A stretch of DNA of 32,000 nt from Promethearchaeota archaeon (GTDB taxonomy: Archaea; Asgardarchaeota; Lokiarchaeia; Sigyniarchaeales; SOKP01), in the NCBI GenBank assembly GCA_030606485.1, contig JAUWGH010000007.1, positions 210,001-242,000 on the forward strand, given 5' to 3'. Position 1 is the stretch's first letter. Every line of letters begins with the position of its first letter. Of the stretch, positions 4,387 through 20,055 are shown piece by piece. Both the position numbers and the translations under genes were made by a program. Under the pieces are notes generated by a model. That model saw only the letters and a program-made list of their open reading frames with translations. It had not been told where the DNA came from and made no database searches.

Positions 4387-5799
4387 ATGGAGACTCCAAA
4401 TCCTTTAGAAAGCAATTTAATTTCTAAATTAACAAAATTAGCTACTCAAAAAAGAATAGAATATTGGGATATTCGAGTAGCATTTAGTTCTGGAACGTTA
4501 TTAGAATTTACTAATGGAAAAAATAAAGAAGTATCATATTCAAATATAAAAGGTATTGGTATCAGAGCTTTTGTTAATGGAGGTTGGGGGTTTTCTGTAA
4601 AACAAAATATATCTGATAGTTCAATAATAGAAGGATTAAATGAGGCTATAAAATTAGCTCACTACGCTGAACGATATTCAAAATTCAAATTTAAAATAAG
4701 AGAATATGATTTAATTAGAGATAAATATCAAACAAAAGTGAAAACGCCTCTTAATGATGTGAATATTGAACAAAAAATTAATCTCACCATGAAAATTGAA
4801 AAAGAAGCACGTGATTTTGATCCAAGAATTATAAATACAAATTCTTTATATACTGATAGTATAATTAATTCTCTTTTTATTAATTCATTTGGAAGTTCAA
4901 TTGAGCAATCTATCTCAATTTTGAGGATTTTCTCTATTGTTCATGCTAAGGAAAATGGAAATTTGCAAAGGAATCATGAATCCAAGGGTGGTGTCGGCGG
5001 TTACGAATTAACTAAAAAAGCCGATAAAATTGGAATAATGTCAGCACAAAAAGCTGTACAATTATTATCGGCTAAACCAGTTAAAGGAGGAAAATTCACA
5101 GTTATAATGGACCCAAAATTAACTGGAGTATTTATTCATGAAGCTTTTGGACATGCATGTGAAGCTGACCTAGTTATCGCCAAAGAAAGTATTTTAGAAG
5201 AAAAAATAGGAGAAAAAGTTGCGTCTGAAAAAGTATCAATTATCGATGACCCAACTCCAAATGATATGGCTCTATTTGGTTCCTATAAATTTGATGATGA
5301 AGGTATAGCTGTAAAACCAGTTCAATTAGTAGAAAATGGCGTTTTAAAAACCTACCTTCATGATTTAGAGAGTGCAAGTAGAATGAATGAACCCCCTAAC
5401 GGGCATGGTCGTGCATCATCATATTCATCTAAACCACAAGCAAGAATGGGGGTTACTTACCTTAAGGAAAGTGATTGGAAATTAAATGAAATGATCGAAG
5501 ATACTAAATATGGTATGTTTTGTGAAAATTGGAAATACGGATACACTAACCCGGCAACAGGAAATTTCCAATTTAAAACTCGAAATTGTTATAAAATTGA
5601 AAATGGAGAAAAAACAGAATTAATGCGAGATGTTGGTTTATCTGGTTTAATCCTCGAGATTTTAAATAGAGTTTCAGCTATTGGTAATAAAGTAGAATTT
5701 AGTGATGGCATTTGTGGAAAAGGAGGACAACGTATTAGAAATTGTAATGGGGGACCTTACCTACGTGTTGAAGATGTGGTTATGGGAGGTTTGCAATAG
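4387..5799 (+). CDS. tldD: TldD family metalloprotease (catalytic subunit)
   Basis: Zn-binding HEAFGH motif, YKFDDEG, GNGHGRA-like NGHGRAS, RMGVTY, and the C-terminal GICGKGGQ Cys. Confidence 0.93.
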   Translation: METPNPLESNLISKLTKLATQKRIEYWDIRVAFSSGTLLEFTNGKNKEVSYSNIKGIGIRAFVNGGWGFSVKQNISDSSIIEGLNEAIKLAHYAERYSKFKFKIREYDLIRDKYQTKVKTPLNDVNIEQKINLTMKIEKEARDFDPRIINTNSLYTDSIINSLFINSFGSSIEQSISILRIFSIVHAKENGNLQRNHESKGGVGGYELTKKADKIGIMSAQKAVQLLSAKPVKGGKFTVIMDPKLTGVFIHEAFGHACEADLVIAKESILEEKIGEKVASEKVSIIDDPTPNDMALFGSYKFDDEGIAVKPVQLVENGVLKTYLHDLESASRMNEPPNGHGRASSYSSKPQARMGVTYLKESDWKLNEMIEDTKYGMFCENWKYGYTNPATGNFQFKTRNCYKIENGEKTELMRDVGLSGLILEILNRVSAIGNKVEFSDGICGKGGQRIRNCNGGPYLRVEDVVMGGLQ

Positions 5800-5801
5800 A
5801 A

Positions 5802-7187
5802 ATGATAACAAATAATAATTTTCCAAAAGACAATAATGTTCTTTTTGATAGAGGTAAATTTGGTTTAAGAATTACTGAGAAATTTGATAAAGTAAAATGT
5901 TCTGAAATTTATATTCAAAAAACAGAAAGTTTTGCAATAGGATTAGAAAAAAATTCCATCAAAGATTGCAATAAATCTGAAAGTTGTGGATTTTCGGTAA
6001 GAGTTTTTGATAAACGGGGCTCATTAGGTTTTGCATATGCTAATGATATTTCTAGTAAAATAATCGAAAAAACCATAAATAATGCTGTAAAGATGATGAA
6101 AGCTGGACCTCCAAATGATGAATTTAAGGATTTACCATTTCCTAAAAAATCTAATTCTAAAATAACAGGAATTTATGACAAAAACATTAAAGATCTTGAT
6201 TTTGAAACACCATTCGATTTAATTAAAGATATGATAAAAATATCATCTGAAGATTCTCAAGTTGTAACTCAATCTGGGGATTTTTCCTCTCTTTATACTT
6301 ATTATTACGTATTTAATTCAAATGGGATTGAAATATCCTCTGAAGAAACAGCGGCTTCTTTAACATCATCGATTGTAGTTAAAAATAATAGGAAAAATGA
6401 GACTGGAAATGGCTTTCATTGGCAAATAGAAAGGAAATACAAGGATTTAGATGCAATTGAAGTTGTCAATAAAACACTCCAAATGGCTAAAATGAATTTA
6501 AATAGGATTAAAATAGAAACAATGAACGTCCCTCTTGTATTAACTCCAAAAGGAGTAATTAGTTTAATATTAAATCCAATTGCTTCAGCAATAAATGCTG
6601 AAACATTTCAATATAACAGAAGCTTTCTTGTAGGAAAATTAAATCAAAAGATTGGTTCAGATCTGTTAAATATTGAAGATAATGGTTTAATTAATGGAGC
6701 TATAGGGTCTTCAGAATTTGATGCTGAAGGTGTCCCATGTCAAAATAAAAAAATCTTTTCAAATGGAGCATTTTTAACTTTAATTCATAATAGCTTCACC
6801 GCTGGAAAAGATAATGTGGAAAGCACTGGAAACGCACAGAGAAATTCTTTTTCTTCAACCCCTTATATCGGTTCAACTAATTTATTCTTCAATACCGGAG
6901 ATTGTAAAATGCAAGAATTATTTGAAGATATAAAAATTGGAATTCTCTTAGATTATACTGGTGATTCTCCTAATATAGCAACAGGGGATTTCAGCGGGTT
7001 GATTTTAAACGGAAATATTATCCGAAATGATGAAATTCAAGAATCACTGAATGAAACTATGATTGGAATTAATCTTTTAGATCTTTTTAATAGAATAGAG
7101 AAAGTGTCCAATAAACTTGAAGTTTATGGCTCAAAAAATGCTCCTTATGTAAAAATAAGTAATGTTCAAATTTCTGGGTCCAAATGA
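5802..7187 (+). CDS. pmbA: PmbA/TldE family protein (non-catalytic partner)
   Basis: FDAEGVP, STGNA and ATGDFSG motifs, no HExxH; starts 2 nt after tldD. Confidence 0.9.
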   Translation: MITNNNFPKDNNVLFDRGKFGLRITEKFDKVKCSEIYIQKTESFAIGLEKNSIKDCNKSESCGFSVRVFDKRGSLGFAYANDISSKIIEKTINNAVKMMKAGPPNDEFKDLPFPKKSNSKITGIYDKNIKDLDFETPFDLIKDMIKISSEDSQVVTQSGDFSSLYTYYYVFNSNGIEISSEETAASLTSSIVVKNNRKNETGNGFHWQIERKYKDLDAIEVVNKTLQMAKMNLNRIKIETMNVPLVLTPKGVISLILNPIASAINAETFQYNRSFLVGKLNQKIGSDLLNIEDNGLINGAIGSSEFDAEGVPCQNKKIFSNGAFLTLIHNSFTAGKDNVESTGNAQRNSFSSTPYIGSTNLFFNTGDCKMQELFEDIKIGILLDYTGDSPNIATGDFSGLILNGNIIRNDEIQESLNETMIGINLLDLFNRIEKVSNKLEVYGSKNAPYVKISNVQISGSK

Positions 7188-7202: not shown

Positions 7203-7760
7203 CTAAATATCTGTTACATTAAGTCTAATAAATAGAATATCAAGAAAGCTCTCCAAATTGTTTTCAATTTTCCACAATTCAAAAATTATTGTTTTATTTG
7301 AACCCGGATTAGAAAATGAAATGTTTTGAGCATCAGAAATCCATTCATTCCCATGTTGAAGTGTAATAATTTGAAGTTTGCTAATTAAGGTACCGTTCGA
7401 ACCTGATTCACTGTTAATCCATGTACTATGATTTCCTTTAAGGATATGAATTGAAAAAGAAAAGTCTTCATTTAAGAAATTACCTACTGTGGTAAACAAT
7501 GTTACATTTTCATTGATTTTTATTTGCGTTGGATAATCTTGGGCATATCCTTCTGAATTTAATAAACCGTAGGTATAATAACCCGGCTCAACCTTAATTA
7601 TTTCATAAATAATAAAACAAGAAGTTAGAATGATTCCAATTAATAAAATAATTCTGGTGATCTTTGCCAGATTTTTCTGTTCTTGATTTGAATTATTATG
7701 AGACTTTTTTTCTTTCATATTTTCTTTAATCTTCATTTTCAATGCTTTTAAACCATTCAA
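7203..7760 (-). CDS. DUF1616-like single-TM membrane protein (true start may be a downstream Met)
   Basis: One TM helix followed by YYTYGLLNSEGYAQDYPTQIKINENVTLFTTVGN, resembling the DUF1616 C-terminal domain; overlaps the end of the upstream epimerase gene. Confidence 0.6.
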   Translation of the reverse strand: MNGLKALKMKIKENMKEKKSHNNSNQEQKNLAKITRIILLIGIILTSCFIIYEIIKVEPGYYTYGLLNSEGYAQDYPTQIKINENVTLFTTVGNFLNEDFSFSIHILKGNHSTWINSESGSNGTLISKLQIITLQHGNEWISDAQNISFSNPGSNKTIIFELWKIENNLESFLDILFIRLNVTDI

Positions 7761-8793
7761 TTGTTACCCTTAATCCTTCTTTTAACGGAGTAGTCGGTTT
7801 CCATTTTATAAGCCTTTTTGCTTTTTCTAAAACAGGGCATCTCCTTACGGGATCATCAATTGGTAATGGATTATGAGTAATTTTTGAATTAGAATTCGTA
7901 AGTTCAATAATTAGTTCGGCAAGTTCTAATATTGTTAATTCATTATCATTCCCTAAATTGATAACTTCACCATTAGCAGCATTAAAATGGACTGCTTTTA
8001 ATAATCCTTCAACTTCATCTACAACGTAAGTAAATGACCTAGTTTGAGATCCATCACCAAACACGGTTATATCTTTATCATTAAGTGCTTGATGAATAAA
8101 ATTAGGTATAACTCTCCCAAATAGAGCACCATAGCGAATTCTTGGACCATAAGTATTAAAAATTCTAATTATTTTAGCTTTTATTTTATGTTGTAATTCA
8201 TATGCTTTAATGAATGCCTCACCTGCTCTTTTAGATTCATCATAACAACTGCGAGGTCCGACAGGATTTACATGTCCAAAGTAAGTCTCAGGTGTTGGCA
8301 CTGCACTGTCTGGAGGATTCCCATAGATCTCACTTGTGCTAGTATAAAAAAATAATGCGTTATGCGCTTTTGCTATACCTAAAGCATTCATTGTTCCCAA
8401 AGTGTTACTTTTTAAAATTGATATGGGAAATTTAGTAAATTCGAATGGCGATGCTCTCGAAGCCATATGCATTACTATATCTATCTTTTCGATATCTCCT
8501 ACACATATTCCCATTGGATGATTAGTAAGTCCGAAATATATAGGTTTTGAAATATCATGATTTAAAAATCTAAAATTTTTTTTATCCATTAAATGACTTA
8601 TATTATCAAAACTACCTGAGGATAAATTATCTAAACAAATACAATATGCCCCTTGCTCTATAAGCACATCACAAATCCAAGAACCTAAAAAACCGGCACC
8701 TCCTGTTACCAAAATAATTTTTTCATTAAATTTAATACTTTCTTTTTCTAAGCGTTTAATTATCTCTTGAATTTCTTTTTCATGATCATACAT
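7726..8793 (-). CDS. UDP-glucuronate decarboxylase (UDP-xylose synthase)-family extended SDR
   Basis: TGGAGFLGS, HMASRASP, TSTSEIYG, RSCYDESKR, RIFNTYGPR, GDGSQTRSF, DDPVRRCP. Confidence 0.9.
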   Translation of the reverse strand: MYDHEKEIQEIIKRLEKESIKFNEKIILVTGGAGFLGSWICDVLIEQGAYCICLDNLSSGSFDNISHLMDKKNFRFLNHDISKPIYFGLTNHPMGICVGDIEKIDIVMHMASRASPFEFTKFPISILKSNTLGTMNALGIAKAHNALFFYTSTSEIYGNPPDSAVPTPETYFGHVNPVGPRSCYDESKRAGEAFIKAYELQHKIKAKIIRIFNTYGPRIRYGALFGRVIPNFIHQALNDKDITVFGDGSQTRSFTYVVDEVEGLLKAVHFNAANGEVINLGNDNELTILELAELIIELTNSNSKITHNPLPIDDPVRRCPVLEKAKRLIKWKPTTPLKEGLRVTIEWFKSIENED

Positions 8794-8866
8794 AGAAAGT
8801 CCCGAAATTTTCCCTTAAATTGTTAATAAAAATGTTTTGAAATAAAAAAAGCTTTAGGCTAAAAAA

Positions 8867-9481
8867 TTAAATTGAATTATCCTCTTTTTCTCCGCAAAAT
8901 TGGCAATAAATTAGCTCTTTTGGATAATAATTTCCACAAGATTTGCATTTTATTAGAGAATTTTTTAAAATCTCTTTACCCAGCTTTACAAAGATTGACT
9001 CGACATTGAATCCCGTTTTAGAGCTGCATTCAATTACTTTTCCATGAAAATCATATCTAATAAAAAATTCCGAAACATCTTCCTTAGAAAGCTGTCTAAT
9101 TTCTTCTAAATCAAGTTTGGATCCAATTAATAATTTAGTATTGGGAGGATTAGGACTATTATTAATAATCTCAAGCCAGTTTTCTAAATCTTCTAATGAT
9201 TTTCTGTTGGTAATATCATACAAAATTAAAGCTCCCGATGCACCGCTAACATATGACGGAAAAAGGGTCCGGAATTTCTCTTCACCTGCAAAATCCCATA
9301 TATTTAATAAGATAATACTATCTTCAACTACAACTTTCTTCGTCTCGAAATCAACTCCTATTGTAGAAAGAGTGGAGATATCGAATTTCCCAGTACAGAA
9401 TCTTCTGATTAAGCTTGTTTTTCCCACCCCTCTGGCCCCAGCAACGATAATTTTGAATTTTATCACGAACCCAACCTCCAC
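8867..9481 (-). CDS. Rab-like small GTPase with C-terminal Zn ribbon
   Basis: G1 GARGVGKT, G2 STIGVDF, G3 WDFAG, G4 SKLD, G5 CSSKTG; C-terminal CKSC-x10-CQFC; GTG start. Confidence 0.9.
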   Translation of the reverse strand: MEVGFVIKFKIIVAGARGVGKTSLIRRFCTGKFDISTLSTIGVDFETKKVVVEDSIILLNIWDFAGEEKFRTLFPSYVSGASGALILYDITNRKSLEDLENWLEIINNSPNPPNTKLLIGSKLDLEEIRQLSKEDVSEFFIRYDFHGKVIECSSKTGFNVESIFVKLGKEILKNSLIKCKSCGNYYPKELIYCQFCGEKEDNSI

Positions 9482-9607
9482 GTCTTCGATGTGCTTTGAT
9501 TTTCTTTTTTTAATACAATTTCGTTATAAATAAATATAATTAACCAATTTATTATTTTTTATTAAAATTGATGAATTTGAGAAAAATTTCCATAATTTGA
9601 ATTATTT

Positions 9608-11947
9608 CTATTTTGATTCAAATTTATCATTTTGATATTTAAAATTTGCGATTTTATATAATTTCTGCCCCAATTTTTTTCCAATTTTTGGAGTTTCCAT
9701 TAGGTCTCCAATATCAGCATTGAAAATGTCCTTTATTTTATGGAATTTTGATAACAAACTTTTTGCTCTTAAATAATTAATCCCCGGAACTCCGGCAATA
9801 ATAAATTCTAATAAACGAGATATTTTTTTTGGTGCTTTTTCAAATCTTAATTTAAATTCTTGCTTTTTTTCAGATTGTTCTTTCTTAGCTAAATGGTATA
9901 ATGTTTTAGCGGTTTCTCGAGAATCCATTGTTTGATAGATATAAATACCCATATTAATCATAACAGAAAAAATAGCACCATATATCGCATTTTCGCTTAG
10001 ATTTGAAGAAATAATTGGGTTTTCACCTTCGAGAATTAAGATTGGCCGATAAAAATTTTGTGATAAGTCTTTTAATTCTTTAAAAAAACGTCCATCTTTT
10101 ATTGAATCTGAAAAATCTTTAGTGCTTTTTCTTTCAACCCCAACCTTTTTTGAAATAATATAATCGGCCACTTCTAAATTCTGGAGCTTTATTTGAACTC
10201 CATACAAAGATAATGTTCTAACTACTGAAGAGGCTGTTTCACGGTTATCCACATAAATAGTATAATCTTCTGCTCCTCTTATTGGAGTAACCGATTCTGA
10301 ATCTAAGGTATTTTCTGAACCAGCATTATCTTTTTGCTCAATATCTTTGATAAAATCCATTAAATTCTTTTTCTTTTCATACTTTGAATTTTTCATTCTT
10401 ATCAAACTCTCTTTCATTTTTTTTTCTTTTGCTAATTCCGCCCAATAATAACCTTCATCTCGGGTGCCCTTTGCGATCAATATTATTATTTTTCCTGCCT
10501 TTTGTCTTCCCGTACGTCCACGTCTTTGAATTGATCGAACGACACTTGGAGTCATATCATAAAAAATTACTAAATCACAATCTGGTATGTCAAGTCCTTC
10601 TTCACCAACATTAGTCGAGACTAATACATTATAAATTCCTTCCTTAAACTTATCAAGTATTTCTAATTGATTTTTCTGAGACATACCCTTATCTCGTCCT
10701 TTCGTTTGTTGACCTATAAATTTATGAATTTGAATAACGTCATCTTTACCGAAATAATTAATTATATTATTAACTGAATCTCGATATTGTGAAAAAACTA
10801 AAATCCTCGAATTTTCATTTAAAGAAATTTGTTCAGATAATGATTCCTTTAATTTCTTCATCTTTGGATGAATTAATCCTTCTGAGATTAGATTTCGTGT
10901 TAAATTAATGGCTTTTTTGAAATCTCGATTTTGAAATAACTCATTAAGTGATTTTGAACTCTTATTATTTTGAATATTTTCCTCATTTTTGGTAAAATAT
11001 TGCTCTAGAGCTTTAAGACCCTGCGTCTCCAATAGTTCAATCATATGGGATAAGCGTAAGGCATTTGCAACCATCTTTTTTGCATTAAACATAGCGAATT
11101 TCTCATTATCATCAGTAGTTTGAGAAATTTTTAAATCAATTTCTTTATTTAATCCCAGTATTTTTAAACGGGATATGTTTCTGATTACTTCGCTATCAAT
11201 AAAGTTCTGATGTTTTAAGAATTTATAAATTTCTTTTAACTTTTTTTCTAAAATTTTTAAAATCTCTAAAAAATCTTCAGGTAAATCAATTTTAATCCAT
11301 ATAATATCAACTTTTTGAATATAAGGTTTAACATCTTCATCCTTCTCTGTCCTAATCTCGATCTTATCGATAAATAAATTCTCTTTTATTATATTAATTT
11401 TCTCTTCAGTCGCCCCTGGACTTGCCGTTATTCCTAAGATTTGTCTACTTCCATCAAGACTCATATATTTTTGAGCAATAAACGTATATGCATAATTCCC
11501 TACTGCCCTATGACATTCGTCAAAAATGATTAAAGAAACATTACTGAGAGAATAGTTATTTGAGATTATATCATTTTGAAGAACTTGTGGTGTGGCAAAT
11601 AATACTCGCGTGTTATCCCATTCCTCTTTCCTATGAGCAGGAGATATCGCACCTGTAAACATTACCAATTGTTCTTCAGGAATTCTTGTCGATTCTATAA
11701 ACAGTTTCCTATGCTGATTTACCAGCGGTTTAGTCGGTGCAAGAAATATCACTTTTAAATCTTCAAATTTAGATAACTTATAAATAGCAAGAATTAAAGC
11801 TATAATTGTTTTCCCTAATCCGGTAGGAATAATTACTAAACAATTAGAATTAATACAACTTATAAATACATTTTCTTGATACGCTCTTCTAATAACTTTA
11901 TTTTCTTTTAAAAGTGGATGGTTTATATAGATTCCATTATCATTCAT
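9608..11947 (-). CDS. hef: Hef (FANCM/XPF-like) SF2 helicase fused to ERCC4 nuclease and HhH
   Basis: PTGLGKT, DECHRA, TASPG, EEGLDIP, QRRGRTGR, VDNRE, VADYII..VERKS, and C-terminal GVPGI/PKIGKK HhH motifs. Confidence 0.93.
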   Translation of the reverse strand: MNDNGIYINHPLLKENKVIRRAYQENVFISCINSNCLVIIPTGLGKTIIALILAIYKLSKFEDLKVIFLAPTKPLVNQHRKLFIESTRIPEEQLVMFTGAISPAHRKEEWDNTRVLFATPQVLQNDIISNNYSLSNVSLIIFDECHRAVGNYAYTFIAQKYMSLDGSRQILGITASPGATEEKINIIKENLFIDKIEIRTEKDEDVKPYIQKVDIIWIKIDLPEDFLEILKILEKKLKEIYKFLKHQNFIDSEVIRNISRLKILGLNKEIDLKISQTTDDNEKFAMFNAKKMVANALRLSHMIELLETQGLKALEQYFTKNEENIQNNKSSKSLNELFQNRDFKKAINLTRNLISEGLIHPKMKKLKESLSEQISLNENSRILVFSQYRDSVNNIINYFGKDDVIQIHKFIGQQTKGRDKGMSQKNQLEILDKFKEGIYNVLVSTNVGEEGLDIPDCDLVIFYDMTPSVVRSIQRRGRTGRQKAGKIIILIAKGTRDEGYYWAELAKEKKMKESLIRMKNSKYEKKKNLMDFIKDIEQKDNAGSENTLDSESVTPIRGAEDYTIYVDNRETASSVVRTLSLYGVQIKLQNLEVADYIISKKVGVERKSTKDFSDSIKDGRFFKELKDLSQNFYRPILILEGENPIISSNLSENAIYGAIFSVMINMGIYIYQTMDSRETAKTLYHLAKKEQSEKKQEFKLRFEKAPKKISRLLEFIIAGVPGINYLRAKSLLSKFHKIKDIFNADIGDLMETPKIGKKLGQKLYKIANFKYQNDKFESK

Positions 11948-12285: not shown

Positions 12286-12603
12286 TTGAGGTCTCATTTT
12301 TTGTCCACCCCTAATGAAGCAAGAAAATTACGTAAAAAATATAAAGAGGTACAAAAAAAAATCAAAATAGGTTCAATTTTTCTTACAAGATTTGAAAAAG
12401 CAAGAATAGTAGGAGCTAGAGCTTTACAGATATCGTTTGGAGCGCCAATTCTTATTATTCGGCCCAAGGAAGTTATAGATCCAATCAAAATTGCTCAGTT
12501 AGAGCTAGAATCCGGTATCCTCCCCTTGACTTTACGTAGAAAACTTCCAAATAAAGAATATCAAGATATTCCCATAAACTGGCTAGTTATTAAGAAAAGT
12601 TAA
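12286..12603 (+). CDS. rpoK: DNA-directed RNA polymerase subunit K (Rpo6/RPB6)
   Basis: LTRFEKARIVGARALQISFGAP and DPIKIAQLELESGILPLTLRR; TTG start, uncertain. Confidence 0.95.
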   Translation: MRSHFLSTPNEARKLRKKYKEVQKKIKIGSIFLTRFEKARIVGARALQISFGAPILIIRPKEVIDPIKIAQLELESGILPLTLRRKLPNKEYQDIPINWLVIKKS

Positions 12604-13856: not shown

Positions 13857-16800
13857 TTAGGTTTCTATTATCGGTAGAGTAAAATAAAATTCAGCCCCTT
13901 TGTCTTTTCCTTTTGAAGTTCCCCATATTTTTCCACCATGTGCTTCCACAACTCCTTTTGAAATATAAAGCCCAAGTCCTAACCCCTTTTTTCTATTAAT
14001 ATGATCAGCACTCTCTTTCTCTATTACTTCAAATTTTTTGAATAATTTTCTAATATCACGAATATTCAACCCTTTACCCTCATTTCTAACTTTAAACAGA
14101 AATTGATTTTTAATCTTTTTGGCTGAGATCTCAATGTTACCACCATTCAAAGTGAATTTTACAGCATTTGAGAATAAATTAGAAAAGACTTCATAAATTC
14201 TATTGGGGTCAACTCTCAGATATAAATCTTTTTGAACATCTACAATAACATTAAGTTTTTTATCGTTTATTTGAAAACTTAGTTCTTCAACGCAATTTTC
14301 AATTATATCGTAGATATTTTTTTCCTCTCGGATTATATCCATTTTTTTTGCGTCAATTTTCATTACATCTAATAATTTCTCGATTAAAAGATTTAATCGC
14401 TGAGAATTTTTTTGGATAAGTAAGAGATCTTTCCTGATTTCAAAATCCAAATCTTTATAGTGAGTGAGAATATAATCTGTATACCCCGTGATAGAAACCA
14501 TAGGTGTTTTTAATTCATGAGCTGCAATTATAATAAAATCATTTTTTAACTCATCTAATCTCCTTAATTCAATATTCTGCTTTCTTAATTTTTCTTCAGA
14601 TTTTCTTAATTTCTGCTCTGCCAACTTCAAGTTGCTAATATCATCAAAAGTTCCTAATACCCTGATGGTTTTTCCTTCTTGATCTAATGTTGGGACCAAT
14701 TTAGATCTAAAGAACACAGACTTCCCCCATTTCGAAATGTAAGGTCGCTCAGAACTGATCTTTCGATTTTCCATTATGCACTTTTTATAATCAGCGGAAA
14801 TTCCTGCCTTCATTAAAAGAGGAAAAGTTAAAAGATTAATCTTTTTAGTAGCTTCTTTAGAAGGAGACCCAAGGAGTTTAAGGGCACTTGTATTGACATT
14901 AAGAATATTTCCATTGACATCACAAGTCAAGATTCCTATAGGTGCTTCATCAAAAAGTGTTCTATATTTTTCTTCTGATTCTTTTAATTCTTCTTCTGTT
15001 AATTTACGCTCAGTAATTTCTCGTATGAAAATTGCAACTTGTTCCTTAGAAAAAAAGAGATGGCGTGCTTCATAATATTGCTCTTTTCCTCTTATCGGTA
15101 ATATATATTCTAAAATTTGAGGTTTTTTTGTAGCAATTGTCTCTCTAATCTTTTTAAGAATTTCTTGTCCAAGATTTGAAGGCACAACGTCTGCCATTCT
15201 TTTACCCATAAATTCTTTTGGGGGGGCATATAGATGTTCCACTTTACCCCGATATTCCAATATTGTAGAATCTTCAGAAACCAAAAAGAATAAATCGGGA
15301 ATTGATTCACAAATTCGCCTGAATTTTATTTCGGATTCTTTTAATTTTTGTTCTGCTTTCTTACGTTCGGTGATTTCTAGAGTAGTTTCAACGGCACCAA
15401 TAACATTTCCATTTGGATCCTTCACTGGAGTAGCTCTTATAATCCAAGATCTTCCATCGGGTGTAGTTCTTTCTTGTTTCTGAAATTCTTTAGTTTCAAT
15501 TGAATTTAGGACGGGACAGTCAATACATGGACTATCTCTTTGAGCCCATATCTCATAACAATGGCGTCCAATTAATTGTTCATGGGATAAACCAACTGAT
15601 TCTCCTGCTGCATTATTTGCCCATACAATTTTTAATTCTCTATCTTGATAGGAGATAAGCTCAGAAACACTATTTAAAATAAGGGCTTGTTCATCTTTAG
15701 TTTTAAGCAATTCTTCTTCAGCTTGTTTCCGCTCAGTAATATTTCGTATAAAAATTGCTACGCGATTTTCAGTAAAAAAGAGAAGTCGTGCTTCGTAATA
15801 CTGAACTTTACCTTTCATGGGAAGATTATATTCTAGAATTTGTGGTTGTTTCGAGCTTATTGTCTTTGATACATATTCTTTAGCCATTTTTCCAAGTTCA
15901 AAAGGTAATATATCACTCAGTTTTTCACTAAGAAACTGTTCAGGAGGAATAAAAAATTCTTCCCTTTTTCCACGATAATCTATTATGGTGGTTTTCTCAT
16001 CAACAAGAAAGAATAAGTCTGGAATTGATTCAAAAATTTGCCTGAATTTTTTTTCAGACTTTTCCAATTCTTTAGTCCTTTCAATTACCTTATACTCCAA
16101 TTCTCTATTTAATTTTTTTAATTCCTTCTCAGCTACTTTCCTTTCTGTGATATCCTGAAGAATAACTTGGATATACTTTTTACTACCTAAATTCACTAAA
16201 GAACTATGTAAATTCATCCATACTAAAGAACCATCTTTAATATAACAAGGAATTTCGATAGGAGGCGGATTTATACCTTCAAGGATCCTCTTATTTCTGT
16301 CTTCGAAAAAGGTTTCAAGTTCAGATACCTTAAATACTGGTAAAATTTCTTTATAATTTTTACCAACCATCTCTTCTTTTTTAATTCCATATAATTTCTC
16401 AATAGTAGAATTACATTCCATAATGTTTCCTTTTGTATCCGTTAATAAAATTGAAAAAGGTGAATTTTCAAACAAATGTCTATATTTTTCCTCAGATTCT
16501 TTTAATTGTTGTTCAGCTCTTTTTTTTTCTGTGATATCTTCTGTATGAACTAACACTAAATCGGGTGGAACAAAAGCGTAATTCACAAAAAGATATTTCC
16601 TTTTATTTGTACTTTTATAATAATAGTATAACTCTCGAGAAAAGTTTAATTTCTCTTCAAAACATCGATATAATTCTTCTAAAATTGTTGGTTGATCACT
16701 ATATAATTCAGAGGCTTTAATTCCTAAATAATTTTTGATTTTACCATCAGTTATTCGCTCCGAAGCAATATTATAATCAATTAATACGAGATCATCATTT

Positions 16801-18470
16801 TCTTTTTGCCATGTGTAAGTAGGGATAGGAATTCCCTTGTAGAGTGCTTTAAATTTTTTTTCAGATTCTTTTAACTTTTGCTCCGCCTGCTTGCGCTCGC
16901 TGATATCTCTGGCAATACCACAAAGACCAAAGATATTACCATTAGCATCCTTAAGCGGCACCTTGATAGTATGAAAAGTATGAGGGATTCCATGAATAGG
17001 TTTCGTTGGTTCTTCTTCAATGATTTCTCCATTGAGAACACGTTTATCTACTTCCATCACATGTTTCCCTGCTTCTTTACCAAATAAGTCGATATCTGTC
17101 TTGTTTTTTAACTCTTCAGCTGGTACACCAAACATCTCCTCCATCGCTGGGTTTACTTGAATATATTGCAATGAGCGATTCTTAATGAATATACTATCTT
17201 TAGCTGTCTCGAAAACTGCTCGGAGCATCTCTTCACTTTTACGTAGTTTTTCTTCTATATTTTTGCGTTCAGTGATGTCTCTAGCAATTAATAATCCTTT
17301 TTTATTCCCATTATTATCTATAAATGTACTCCCTTTAACTTCAAGCCAAATCCAATATCCTTTTTTGTGTTTAACTCTAACTATTTCCGTTCCTTCCCCA
17401 GTTTTAAATCCCATCCTTAAAGATTTAATAGTATGCTCAATATCATCATGATGGAGTAAATCTATTGAATTTCTCCCGATTAATTCTTCCTTTTTGTATC
17501 CTAATAATTTTTGAGTGATTTGCTCATTCATATATTCAATATCAAAATTTTCATTGATAATAATAAATAAGTCATTTGCATTTTCTGAAATCAATCGATA
17601 TTTTTCTTCGGATTGTTTCAAATTCTGTGTTCTTTCATCAACTATTTGCTCTAATTCAATATTTAATTCTTTTAACCTTTTTTCAGATTCTTTTAATGCT
17701 TGTTCTGCTTTCTTTTTATCAGTAATGTCTACTAGAGTAATGAAATCTGCAGGTTTTCCTTCATACAAAATTGATTTAGAATATACATCGACCCATTTTA
17801 ACTCTCCGGACTTTGTGAATATTCTACAAGAATACTGTGTTGCAACGTCTGTTTCTCCAGCTTGTTTCTTTTTTGCTTGTTCCATTATAAATAGTAAATC
17901 ATCTGGATGGATTAATTTAACAAAATCGTTCAATGACCATCCTATTATTTCTTGAGGCGTATAGTTACCAATTTTTGCTACAGCTTCATTTACATATTTC
18001 AAAACATTATCTTGGAGGATAACTATACCCATTAATAATTGTTCAGTAATTGTCCTGAATTTTGATATTGATTCTTTAAGCTTTTTCTCCGCATTCTTTC
18101 TTTCGGTGATGTTATTTGCAATGCCTAAAATTCCGTAGATTTTTCCTTTTTTTTTAAGTGGAATTCCATAGGTCTCAACATATATGGAATTACCATCTTT
18201 TGTTTTAAGTTTAAATTCACTACGTTTAGATTGCTTTCTCTTTTCTTTAAGATCTTTGATAATATTTAATGCATTAACTATTTGATTTTTATCAATTAAA
18301 TTTTTAAAGGATAGATTTGGAATATCATCTCTTTTATATCCAAGTGTTTCTAATGCAATATCATTTGCATCAAAAAAATTTCCCCTTAGATCATGAGCAT
18401 AGATTAAATCTAAGGAATTATCAAATAGTGCTCTAAATTCTTTTCTAATCTCAGTTTCATCAGTTGACAT
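13857..18470 (-). CDS. Soluble multi-PAS (about 10 PAS/PAC) sensor histidine kinase
   Basis: Ten repeats ending in [D/N/E]I[T/S]xxK-type PAC motifs; H box AAHELKTP, N box NLFSNAVKF, G2 GLGLGL; no TM segment or receiver domain. Confidence 0.95.
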   Translation of the reverse strand: MSTDETEIRKEFRALFDNSLDLIYAHDLRGNFFDANDIALETLGYKRDDIPNLSFKNLIDKNQIVNALNIIKDLKEKRKQSKRSEFKLKTKDGNSIYVETYGIPLKKKGKIYGILGIANNITERKNAEKKLKESISKFRTITEQLLMGIVILQDNVLKYVNEAVAKIGNYTPQEIIGWSLNDFVKLIHPDDLLFIMEQAKKKQAGETDVATQYSCRIFTKSGELKWVDVYSKSILYEGKPADFITLVDITDKKKAEQALKESEKRLKELNIELEQIVDERTQNLKQSEEKYRLISENANDLFIIINENFDIEYMNEQITQKLLGYKKEELIGRNSIDLLHHDDIEHTIKSLRMGFKTGEGTEIVRVKHKKGYWIWLEVKGSTFIDNNGNKKGLLIARDITERKNIEEKLRKSEEMLRAVFETAKDSIFIKNRSLQYIQVNPAMEEMFGVPAEELKNKTDIDLFGKEAGKHVMEVDKRVLNGEIIEEEPTKPIHGIPHTFHTIKVPLKDANGNIFGLCGIARDISERKQAEQKLKESEKKFKALYKGIPIPTYTWQKENDDLVLIDYNIASERITDGKIKNYLGIKASELYSDQPTILEELYRCFEEKLNFSRELYYYYKSTNKRKYLFVNYAFVPPDLVLVHTEDITEKKRAEQQLKESEEKYRHLFENSPFSILLTDTKGNIMECNSTIEKLYGIKKEEMVGKNYKEILPVFKVSELETFFEDRNKRILEGINPPPIEIPCYIKDGSLVWMNLHSSLVNLGSKKYIQVILQDITERKVAEKELKKLNRELEYKVIERTKELEKSEKKFRQIFESIPDLFFLVDEKTTIIDYRGKREEFFIPPEQFLSEKLSDILPFELGKMAKEYVSKTISSKQPQILEYNLPMKGKVQYYEARLLFFTENRVAIFIRNITERKQAEEELLKTKDEQALILNSVSELISYQDRELKIVWANNAAGESVGLSHEQLIGRHCYEIWAQRDSPCIDCPVLNSIETKEFQKQERTTPDGRSWIIRATPVKDPNGNVIGAVETTLEITERKKAEQKLKESEIKFRRICESIPDLFFLVSEDSTILEYRGKVEHLYAPPKEFMGKRMADVVPSNLGQEILKKIRETIATKKPQILEYILPIRGKEQYYEARHLFFSKEQVAIFIREITERKLTEEELKESEEKYRTLFDEAPIGILTCDVNGNILNVNTSALKLLGSPSKEATKKINLLTFPLLMKAGISADYKKCIMENRKISSERPYISKWGKSVFFRSKLVPTLDQEGKTIRVLGTFDDISNLKLAEQKLRKSEEKLRKQNIELRRLDELKNDFIIIAAHELKTPMVSITGYTDYILTHYKDLDFEIRKDLLLIQKNSQRLNLLIEKLLDVMKIDAKKMDIIREEKNIYDIIENCVEELSFQINDKKLNVIVDVQKDLYLRVDPNRIYEVFSNLFSNAVKFTLNGGNIEISAKKIKNQFLFKVRNEGKGLNIRDIRKLFKKFEVIEKESADHINRKKGLGLGLYISKGVVEAHGGKIWGTSKGKDKGAEFYFTLPIIET

Positions 18471-18912: not shown

Positions 18913-20055
18913 TTAGAAACAACGATGTATTACCTGAGGTCCCATCTCTTTATATTCACGCCTAGTCACCCACATTCTATGGAATGTTTTTAGAGATGCG
19001 AGAATGGAACCACCAATCCATACACTGTACATCCGCTCTGGAGGAGCTATAATTTTAACGTCAACGCTTTCAGGAATTTGTTCTTTTATCTCCTTGGTCA
19101 ATCGTTCTTTTAAACCAGGGTACATTGTGGAACCGCCAGAAAGAACGATATTCCCATAGAGATCTCTTCTTAAATCGACATCACATTCAGAAATTGAACT
19201 TACAATAATATCATCCATGGGCTCCAATTCTTTACCAATTACAGATGGGTTAAACATGCATTCAGGTGCAAGGAATCTCTCAACTCCAACATTAATTGTT
19301 TCACCATCTGGTAACATATAGGATTTTTCCATACCTGCTACTTTCTTGGAAAGCATCATTTCCTTTTCCGGATCGACAGCTACATAGCATAATTTCTCTT
19401 TAATGTCTCGTACAATTTCTTTTTCAGCTGAAGTAGTAAATGCATAACCTTTTTGTCTTAGTAATCTTTGTAGGTAATTCGTAATATCTCTACCTGCAAG
19501 ATCAATTCTTTGAATTGCATGGCTTAATGCGAATCCCTCGAATATTGGGACAACGTGTGAAACACCATCTCCAATATCTATAACGCATCCAGTTGTACGA
19601 CCAGAGGCGTATAGAGATAGTACTGCTTGCATAGCAACATATAACGCAGGAACATTAAAGGTTTCAAACATAATTTCAGCCATTTTTTCTCTATTTGGTC
19701 TTGGGTTTAATGGTGCTTCGGTTAAAAGCACTGGATGTTCGCTAGGATCGATACGAAGATCTGTATAAAAAGTATAATGCCATATTTTTTCCATAGCGGT
19801 CCAGTCTTCTATAATACCGTGCTCGACAGGAAACATTAATTTGAGGACACCTTTGAGTTGTAATGCTTCTTCCCCAATATAATACTCTCTAGTATAGTGC
19901 TCTACATCCGTCATTATACTTTCGTATTTAGGATATCCTATAAGCGTTGGAAACACGGATCGTGGCTGATCTTCTCCAGCAAAACCATTCTTTGAAATAC
20001 CAGTTCCATTATCTACGACCAAGGCTTTAGCGGAAAGAAAATCTTCTTCGGTCAT
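18913..20055 (-). CDS. Asgard actin (Lokiactin-type)
   Basis: [94 protein letters not shown]-terminal HRCF. Confidence 0.97.

Follow-up and report, generated by a model that had tools for sequence, protein, structure and literature searches.

What does a zinc ribbon do at the end of an archaeal Rab-like GTPase, exactly at the position from which the hypervariable, prenylated tail of eukaryotic Rabs emerges, and does it tell us anything about the origin of that tail? The question is raised by a gene located in a 32,000-nt stretch of DNA of a Promethearchaeota archaeon (contig JAUWGH010000007.1, positions 210,001-242,000; hereafter the window), whose genome is that of an Asgard archaeon, 3.75 Mb in size and with 64 Ras-family matches, only one of these approximately 64 genes carrying a C-terminal CxxC...CxxC ribbon. 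The gene is real and strongly conserved. It was listed on the minus strand as a 204-codon open reading frame (8867-9481), but the start is most likely the GTG at 9466-9464 and not position 9481, since the 24 aligned homologues all begin with MIKFK, matching a start at this codon, a putative Shine-Dalgarno-like GGAGGT (9474-9479, minus strand) is found 7 nt upstream, and public collections record the 199-residue form and not the 204-residue form. The coding sequence would thus span 8867-9466 on the minus strand, with a TAA stop codon at 8869-8867 and a product of 199 residues. A candidate archaeal TATA box (TTTATAA, 9524-9530, minus strand) lies 58-64 nt upstream of the start, which in DNA of 29% G+C carries little weight, and two T-runs (T6 and T7; 8844-8866, minus strand) immediately 3' of the stop codon constitute a candidate archaeal terminator. 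Taken together, these signals suggest that the gene may be its own transcription unit. No tRNA was found in the window by ARAGORN.

The first 170 residues (8957-9466, minus strand) form a G domain, which matches Pfam Ras (PF00071) with 143.4 bits against a cut-off of 21.6 (E 6e-42, profile positions 1-161 of 162) and the NCBIfam small_GTP model TIGR00231 with 68.4 bits against a cut-off of 42.5; Pfam Roc (96.5 bits) and Arf both score below Ras. When the sequence was compared with proteins of solved structure, the top 60 matches were all eukaryotic Rabs, with Ypt6 in first place (1.7e-36), followed by Rab8A, Rab12, Rab10, Rab14 and Rab6. An AlphaFold2 model built from 122 sequences (mean pLDDT 91.5, pTM 0.86) displays the classic order of strands and helices, and Foldseek places Rab8, Rab1, Rab5 and Rab3 at the top ranks (TM 0.88-0.94, identity 33-38%), Rab8 being the best match (TM 0.90, identity 37%). 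Likewise, in a structure search independent of Foldseek (VIA) the Rabs are the best matches (Rab3C, Z 27.1, identity 33%), followed by RhoA (Z 25.9, 25%), NRAS (Z 24.3, 31%), Ran (Z 24.1, 28%) and Arf6 (Z 20.9, 21%), and these values come from a predicted fold that cannot by itself separate Rab from Ras or Rho. The Rab-like G domain described in the initial annotation is therefore upheld by the best matches together with the motifs discussed below. Roco and LRRK2 rank near the bottom of the small-GTPase matches (Z 17.9 and 19-24% identity, against Z 27 and 32-38% identity for Rabs), so that the placement with Roc, which the initial annotation had set against its own proposal, was not found. 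Membership of the Roc (ROCO) group was rejected on these grounds, on the lower Pfam score of Roc and on the size of the protein, whose 199 residues include no COR domain.

The complete set of Ras-superfamily motifs is present: G1 is the P-loop GARGVGKT (residues 10-17), switch I holds Thr35 within STIGVDF, G3 is WDFAGE, in which DFAG is kept, G4 is SKLD (residues 116-119), in which Lys and Asp are kept and Asn is replaced by Ser (Ala or Thr in relatives; EAKxD in most other genera), and G5 is SSK (residues 147-150). The catalytic Gln that follows DxxG in the superfamily is absent, its position being occupied by Glu62; every aligned homologue has this Glu, as do all 50 orthologues taken from genomes. 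The same Gln-to-Glu change is common to the ribbon-less sister GTPases described below, and is therefore a trait of a wider Asgard clade and not of the ribbon family alone. The domain would be expected to bind guanine nucleotide and to cycle, and, given the Glu in place of the catalytic Gln, its hydrolysis chemistry or its dependence on a GAP is probably unlike that of Rabs. At the level of individual genomes, the orthologue of G109 (L022:1495-2112, minus strand) harbors, just upstream of the Trp codon of WDFAGE, a 30-nt insert with a stop codon and an 8-bp inverted repeat, which is absent from the copy in the window and from two other aligned orthologues.

The initial annotation had further claimed all five RabF-like motifs. 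In fact, IGVDF, LLNIW, KFRTLF, YVSGA and ILYDIT are all found in the translated sequence, RabF1 being identical to the eukaryotic consensus and RabF2 to RabF5 recognizable (5/5, 3/5, 2/6, 3/5 and 4/6 identical residues), yet the agreement is a loose one, with 17 of 27 positions identical and 23 of 27 similar. The comparison covered 23 representative eukaryotic Rabs, which score between 10 and 25 on the same scale (mean 18.7), and the other GTPases of the genome, several of which lack a ribbon, exceed 17 and reach up to 21; the zinc-ribbon GTPase is therefore not the most Rab-like GTPase of its own genome. The likeness to eukaryotic Rabs such as Ypt6/Rab6, Rab8A, Rab1 and Rab3 lies in the 32-38% identity, the Z scores of up to 27 and the RabF motifs, whereas the Rabs have a prenylated tail, the catalytic Gln and NKxD where this protein has a ribbon, Glu and SKLD. 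A hypervariable tail with a prenylatable CC, CXC or CAAX is absent from it, and membership of the eukaryotic Rab family was rejected because of this tail and, in published trees, also because of phylogeny.

What stands in place of the tail is a C4 zinc ribbon comprising residues 172-194 (8885-8953, minus strand), with the sequence CKSC-x10-CQFC followed by EKEDNSI; the predicted zinc ligands are Cys174, Cys177, Cys188 and Cys191, and the short acidic tail behind them (KEDNSI region, 8870-8884, minus strand), where pLDDT falls to about 70, is genus-specific, with SKT-type tails in other genera. The position reported in the initial annotation, exactly that of the prenylated tail of Rabs, is thus confirmed. 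The four cysteines are invariant in 25 aligned homologues and in all 68 distinct ribbon GTPases extracted from genomes, and the motif is therefore not a product of chance. Among 50 orthologues the consensus reads kkC.nCGk.YPlElKfCQyCG, and of the 22 ribbon positions 11 reach a conservation of 90% or more in proteins that are only 62-66% identical overall. The loop of the ribbon differs by subfamily: the 50 orthologues have YPxEL, the paralogues within the window's family FSKKL and the members of a sister family ISxD, which is the pattern that a partner-specificity surface would show. In the AlphaFold2 model helix alpha5 (residues 155-170) runs straight into a strand at 171-173, with a second strand at 180-182 and a ribbon pLDDT of 87-89, and no flexible or hypervariable linker is predicted between helix and ribbon; folded alone, alpha5 and the ribbon reach a pLDDT of 83. 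Orthologues from other genera pass Pfam thresholds, as P0067 does for PF13240 Zn_Ribbon_1 (26.4 bits against 25) and PF24460 DUF7575 (29.1 against 28.5), and the ribbon of the window remains below threshold, its only match being Zn_ribbon_15 (16.4 bits against 28.9, E 0.017). Zinc binding is probable.

The nearest solved analogues of the ribbon model are fingers of the RanBP2/NZF type, at Z scores of only 2-3.9, which do not discriminate; they include the Ran-GDP-bound fingers of Nup358 and Nup153, the NZF domains of TAB2 and Npl4, and MDM2, FUS and ZRANB2, to which the RBM5 finger and ribosomal zinc ribbons may be added. RanBP2/NZF fingers account for most of the top structural matches and share the C-x2-C-x10-C-x2-C spacing and the predicted two-hairpin ribbon, but the GTPase lacks the Trp and Asn that are their hallmark, and the resemblance is one of fold only. 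Pfam zf-RanBP gave no match to the protein at E up to 0.1, and since the signature W-x-C-x2-4-C-x3-N-x6-C-x2-C is not found and Z is only 3.9, membership of the RanBP2-type/NZF family was rejected.

In order to follow the ribbon across the phylum, a profile of the last 58 residues (alpha5 and ribbon) was run over 400 genomes. All 134 genomes of the window's family match, most of them with E values of 1e-28 to 1e-32, the few weaker matches coming mostly from incomplete genomes. Sequences from three sister families within the order match at 1e-14 or better, one family including the closed genome named Candidatus Harpocratesius repetitus by NCBI, and one genus of the order gives only scores at the level of alpha5 (about 5e-7). 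All other families among the 400 genomes score between 1e-7 and 1e-10, the level reached by alpha5 alone. The sole strong match outside the order comes from G190, a genome contaminated to 9%, and sits on a contig of 10 kb whose neighboring gene fits the arrangement seen inside the order; this contig is probably mis-binned. A wide spread among Asgard archaea, suggested by the NCBI names Heimdall-, Thor- and Hermodarchaeota on some homologues, was therefore rejected, strong matches among the 400 genomes being confined, with this exception, to one order. Elsewhere in the window's genome the only ribbon of the same type is that of an unrelated 50-residue ORF. No longer fused forms with alpha5 and ribbon were found, a null result of little weight, and a heuristic scan of the same genome returned no GTPase operon with separate small zinc-ribbon, longin and multi-TM proteins.

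Phylogenetic trees were computed from the G domain alone, with the ribbon columns removed, as a quick tree of 101 rows and a careful tree of 67 rows; the eukaryotic rows were Rabs, recognized by their CC or CXC tails, together with one named Anaeramoeba Rab. Both trees agree. The ribbon GTPases form one clade (support 100/94, present in 100% of bootstrap trees), within which the orthologue group of the window is sister to the paralogue group of the same family and the sequences of the sister families branch below. This clade is sister to 23 ribbon-less Asgard GTPases (joint support 94/92), which share the switch II WDF[AG]GE, and the resulting Asgard-only clade of 43 rows (94/92) stands apart from the eukaryotic Rab clade (91/87). 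A published phylogeny that also samples eukaryotic Ras, Rho and Ran likewise contains no Asgard GTPase that is specifically sister to Rabs, and places the Asgard 'RasL' proteins with Rab, Ras, Rho and Ran together (bioRxiv 10.1101/2024.02.28.582541). The suggestion that the ribbon represents a pre-eukaryotic solution to localization is thus unsupported, because the ribbon clade is a derived one within an Asgard-only radiation and, in the 400 genomes, belongs to a single order. The ribbon is an innovation of that order rather than a precursor of the eukaryotic tail. Its bearers are a variant, limited to one lineage, of the Ras/Rab-like GTPases already known from Asgard archaea, and are neither Rabs nor a stage toward prenylation.

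Based on these results, we hypothesize that the product is a soluble switch of the Ras superfamily, akin to the 'RasL'/Rab-like proteins of Asgard archaea, whose ribbon serves as a fixed docking module of single, order-level origin, a reading to which we give a probability of roughly 0.55. In such a protein a rigid C4 ribbon would replace the free C-terminus, fused to alpha5 and putatively placed on the face opposite the switch regions, from where it would keep the protein docked to one particular macromolecule, most likely another protein. A single fusion event in the common ancestor of a Lokiarchaeial order would have been followed by diversification into subfamilies of orthologues and paralogues, in each of which a particular ribbon loop is conserved.

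In all 15 genomes compared within the family, the ribbon GTPase is preceded, in gene order, by two TldD/PmbA genes, a DUF1616 membrane protein and a sugar epimerase, and followed by Hef, an Rpo6-like gene, an ORF of 167 residues, a GNAT acetyltransferase and lokiactin. In the window, the tandem TldD/PmbA metallopeptidase pair, conserved beside the GTPase across the family, is located at 4387-7187 (plus strand), and a gene of the UDP-sugar epimerase/dehydratase type, overlapping that of the DUF1616-like membrane protein, at 7203-8793 (minus strand); this TldD/PmbA-epimerase side is retained in two sister-family genera. Directly upstream of the GTPase lies a full-length Hef-type helicase-nuclease (DEAD/Helicase_C, ERCC4 and HhH; 9608-11947, minus strand), and farther on a small ORF with an RNA polymerase Rpb6 (RpoK) domain (12286-12603, plus strand; E 1.5e-6), which is syntenic in 14 related loci. 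In several genera the GNAT gene is followed by a further paralogue of the ribbon GTPase, at a place where the window's genus has a PAS histidine kinase (sensor kinase of 1537 residues with at least seven PAS domains; 13857-18470, minus strand). The actin homologue of the same syntenic block (18913-20055, minus strand; Pfam Actin, E 7.9e-134) is lokiactin, 96-99% identical to the copies in related genomes, as expected for an Asgard genome. An operon with Hef or with the epimerase was considered and judged unproven, in view of the GTPase gene's own TATA-like, Shine-Dalgarno-like and T-run signals and of an insertion of 1.5 kb that separates Hef from the GTPase in some genera.

Such neighbors lend some color to a tentative alternative, which we consider possible though unlikely, namely that the ribbon binds nucleic acid and tethers the switch to RNA, DNA or a nucleic-acid machine. 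The ribosome-assembly GTPases RsgA and YqeH carry zinc-finger domains that tether them, RanBP2-type fingers bind ssRNA, and among the structures that resemble the ribbon are RNA-binding fingers (FUS, ZRANB2 and RBM5) as well as the ribosomal zinc ribbons. Furthermore, the GTPase is found directly downstream of Hef in all 15 family genomes and, at only 30 nt, in one sister-family genus, and it is adjacent to Hef in another family of the order, with the Rpo6-like gene nearby, and Lokiarchaeota are known to fuse Rab-like GTPases to histone folds, the 'Rab GTPase histones' (PMC11390915). Nevertheless, the link to Hef is loosened by the 1.5-kb insertion, the structural matches discriminate nothing at a Z of at most 3.9, the net charge of the ribbon is about zero in the window's copy, and most of a sister family has a RagA-like GTPase in the place of Hef. 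In that family a divergently transcribed Gtr1/RagA-like GTPase of 402-433 residues, with an N-terminal extension of about 107 residues, accompanies the ribbon GTPase in seven loci from four genera, with small ORFs between the two genes in one of the seven, and in one genus a GPP34/GOLPH3-like gene (PF05719, E 3e-23) is located on the other side of the ribbon GTPase (L084:7192-10057, L046:8421-11882 and L047:800-4628). A search of the window's genome with the sister-family RagA-like protein gave no match at E 1e-10, and the RagA-like GTPase is therefore not a universal partner. Likewise, in the loci compared the ribbon GTPase is not accompanied by any gene for a GAP, a GEF, a roadblock or a longin protein; with neighbors so heterogeneous and no constant companion, the context does not name the ligand.

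It could also be argued that the ribbon has no targeting role at all and is a structural zinc cap that stabilizes the end of alpha5. Small zinc ribbons are common stabilizing elements of archaeal proteins, and this one is short, rigid and fused immediately to the helix. We regard this explanation as quite improbable, since the non-cysteine surface residues of the ribbon (Pro, Glu, Leu, Gln and aromatics) are invariant in orthologues and switch blockwise between subfamilies, and the approximately 25 ribbon-less sister GTPases evidently fold without such an element.

Less credible still is the idea, raised in the initial annotation alongside protein and nucleic-acid targeting, that the ribbon targets the GTPase directly to the membrane, as a stand-in for prenylation. 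To our knowledge, no small zinc ribbon of this type binds lipid alone, and nothing in the sequence of the ribbon points to direct contact with lipid, be it an amphipathic helix, a polybasic patch or a hydrophobic stretch, the tail in the window's copy being acidic; the ribbon does not look like a lipid anchor. In the model the flexible linker needed to reach the bilayer is lacking, and the subfamily-specific loops would suit a specific partner better than bulk lipid. What speaks for a membrane role is the location of the ribbon where the anchoring tail of Rabs emerges, the presence of the DUF1616 membrane protein and the sugar epimerase among the neighbors, and the fact that Asgard Rab-like GTPases are described without prenylation motifs (PMC4915359), with no BLAST homologues of REP and Rab geranylgeranyltransferase reported in Asgard archaea (PMC10933270). 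A final reading, in which the ribbon is a RanBP2/NZF-like finger that reads in trans a small GTPase or a ubiquitin-like protein, such as the G domain of a second copy, the paralogue located a few kb away in sister genera or the RagA-like neighbor, is highly improbable, and if true it would imply nucleotide-state-dependent GTPase pairs and an archaeal precedent for the recognition of Ran-GDP by nuclear-pore zinc fingers.

A fixed docking module at the C-terminus of a soluble switch, the reading we prefer, would not be without precedent in these archaea. Rab-like GTPases with RabF motifs were described in Lokiarchaeum in 2016, with C-terminal cysteines and extensions stated to be absent (Surkont & Pereira-Leal, PMC4915359), and the structure of a Thor-Rab was obtained by crystallography in 2024 (7EZB; Tran et al., PMC10933270); no GTPase with a terminal Cys was reported in strain MK-D1, and Loki Rab-like GTPases with C-terminal roadblock or longin fusions have been noted (PMC10933270). 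Together with the histone-fold fusions, these provide a precedent for C-terminal modules on Loki Rab-like GTPases: the design is the same, a folded module taking the place of the tail on a Rab-like G domain, and is limited to Lokiarchaeia, but the module is a histone fold or a roadblock/longin domain in the known fusions and a 23-residue zinc ribbon here. With the other Asgard 'RasL'/Rab-like GTPases the family shares the G-domain family, the RabF-like motifs, the phylum and the lack of a prenylation signal, and differs from them in always carrying the C4 zinc ribbon. In a full-text literature search we found no description of a zinc-ribbon tail on an Asgard Rab-like GTPase, and the databases label the family 'GTP-binding protein' or 'Rab family GTPase'.

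As a derived and lineage-restricted trait, the ribbon has no direct bearing on the origin of Rab prenylation. Its significance lies in the biology of the archaea themselves, which possess dozens of Ras/Rab-like switches without lipid tails, described as having no C-terminal targeting signal. One Lokiarchaeial order would appear to have solved the positioning of such a switch differently, by welding a conserved zinc ribbon onto it. As one small soluble protein, amenable to a clean deletion or a Cys mutant and equipped with subfamily-specific ribbon loops, the zinc-ribbon GTPase may offer a tractable handle for finding a physiological partner, which would be the first for an Asgard Ras-like GTPase.
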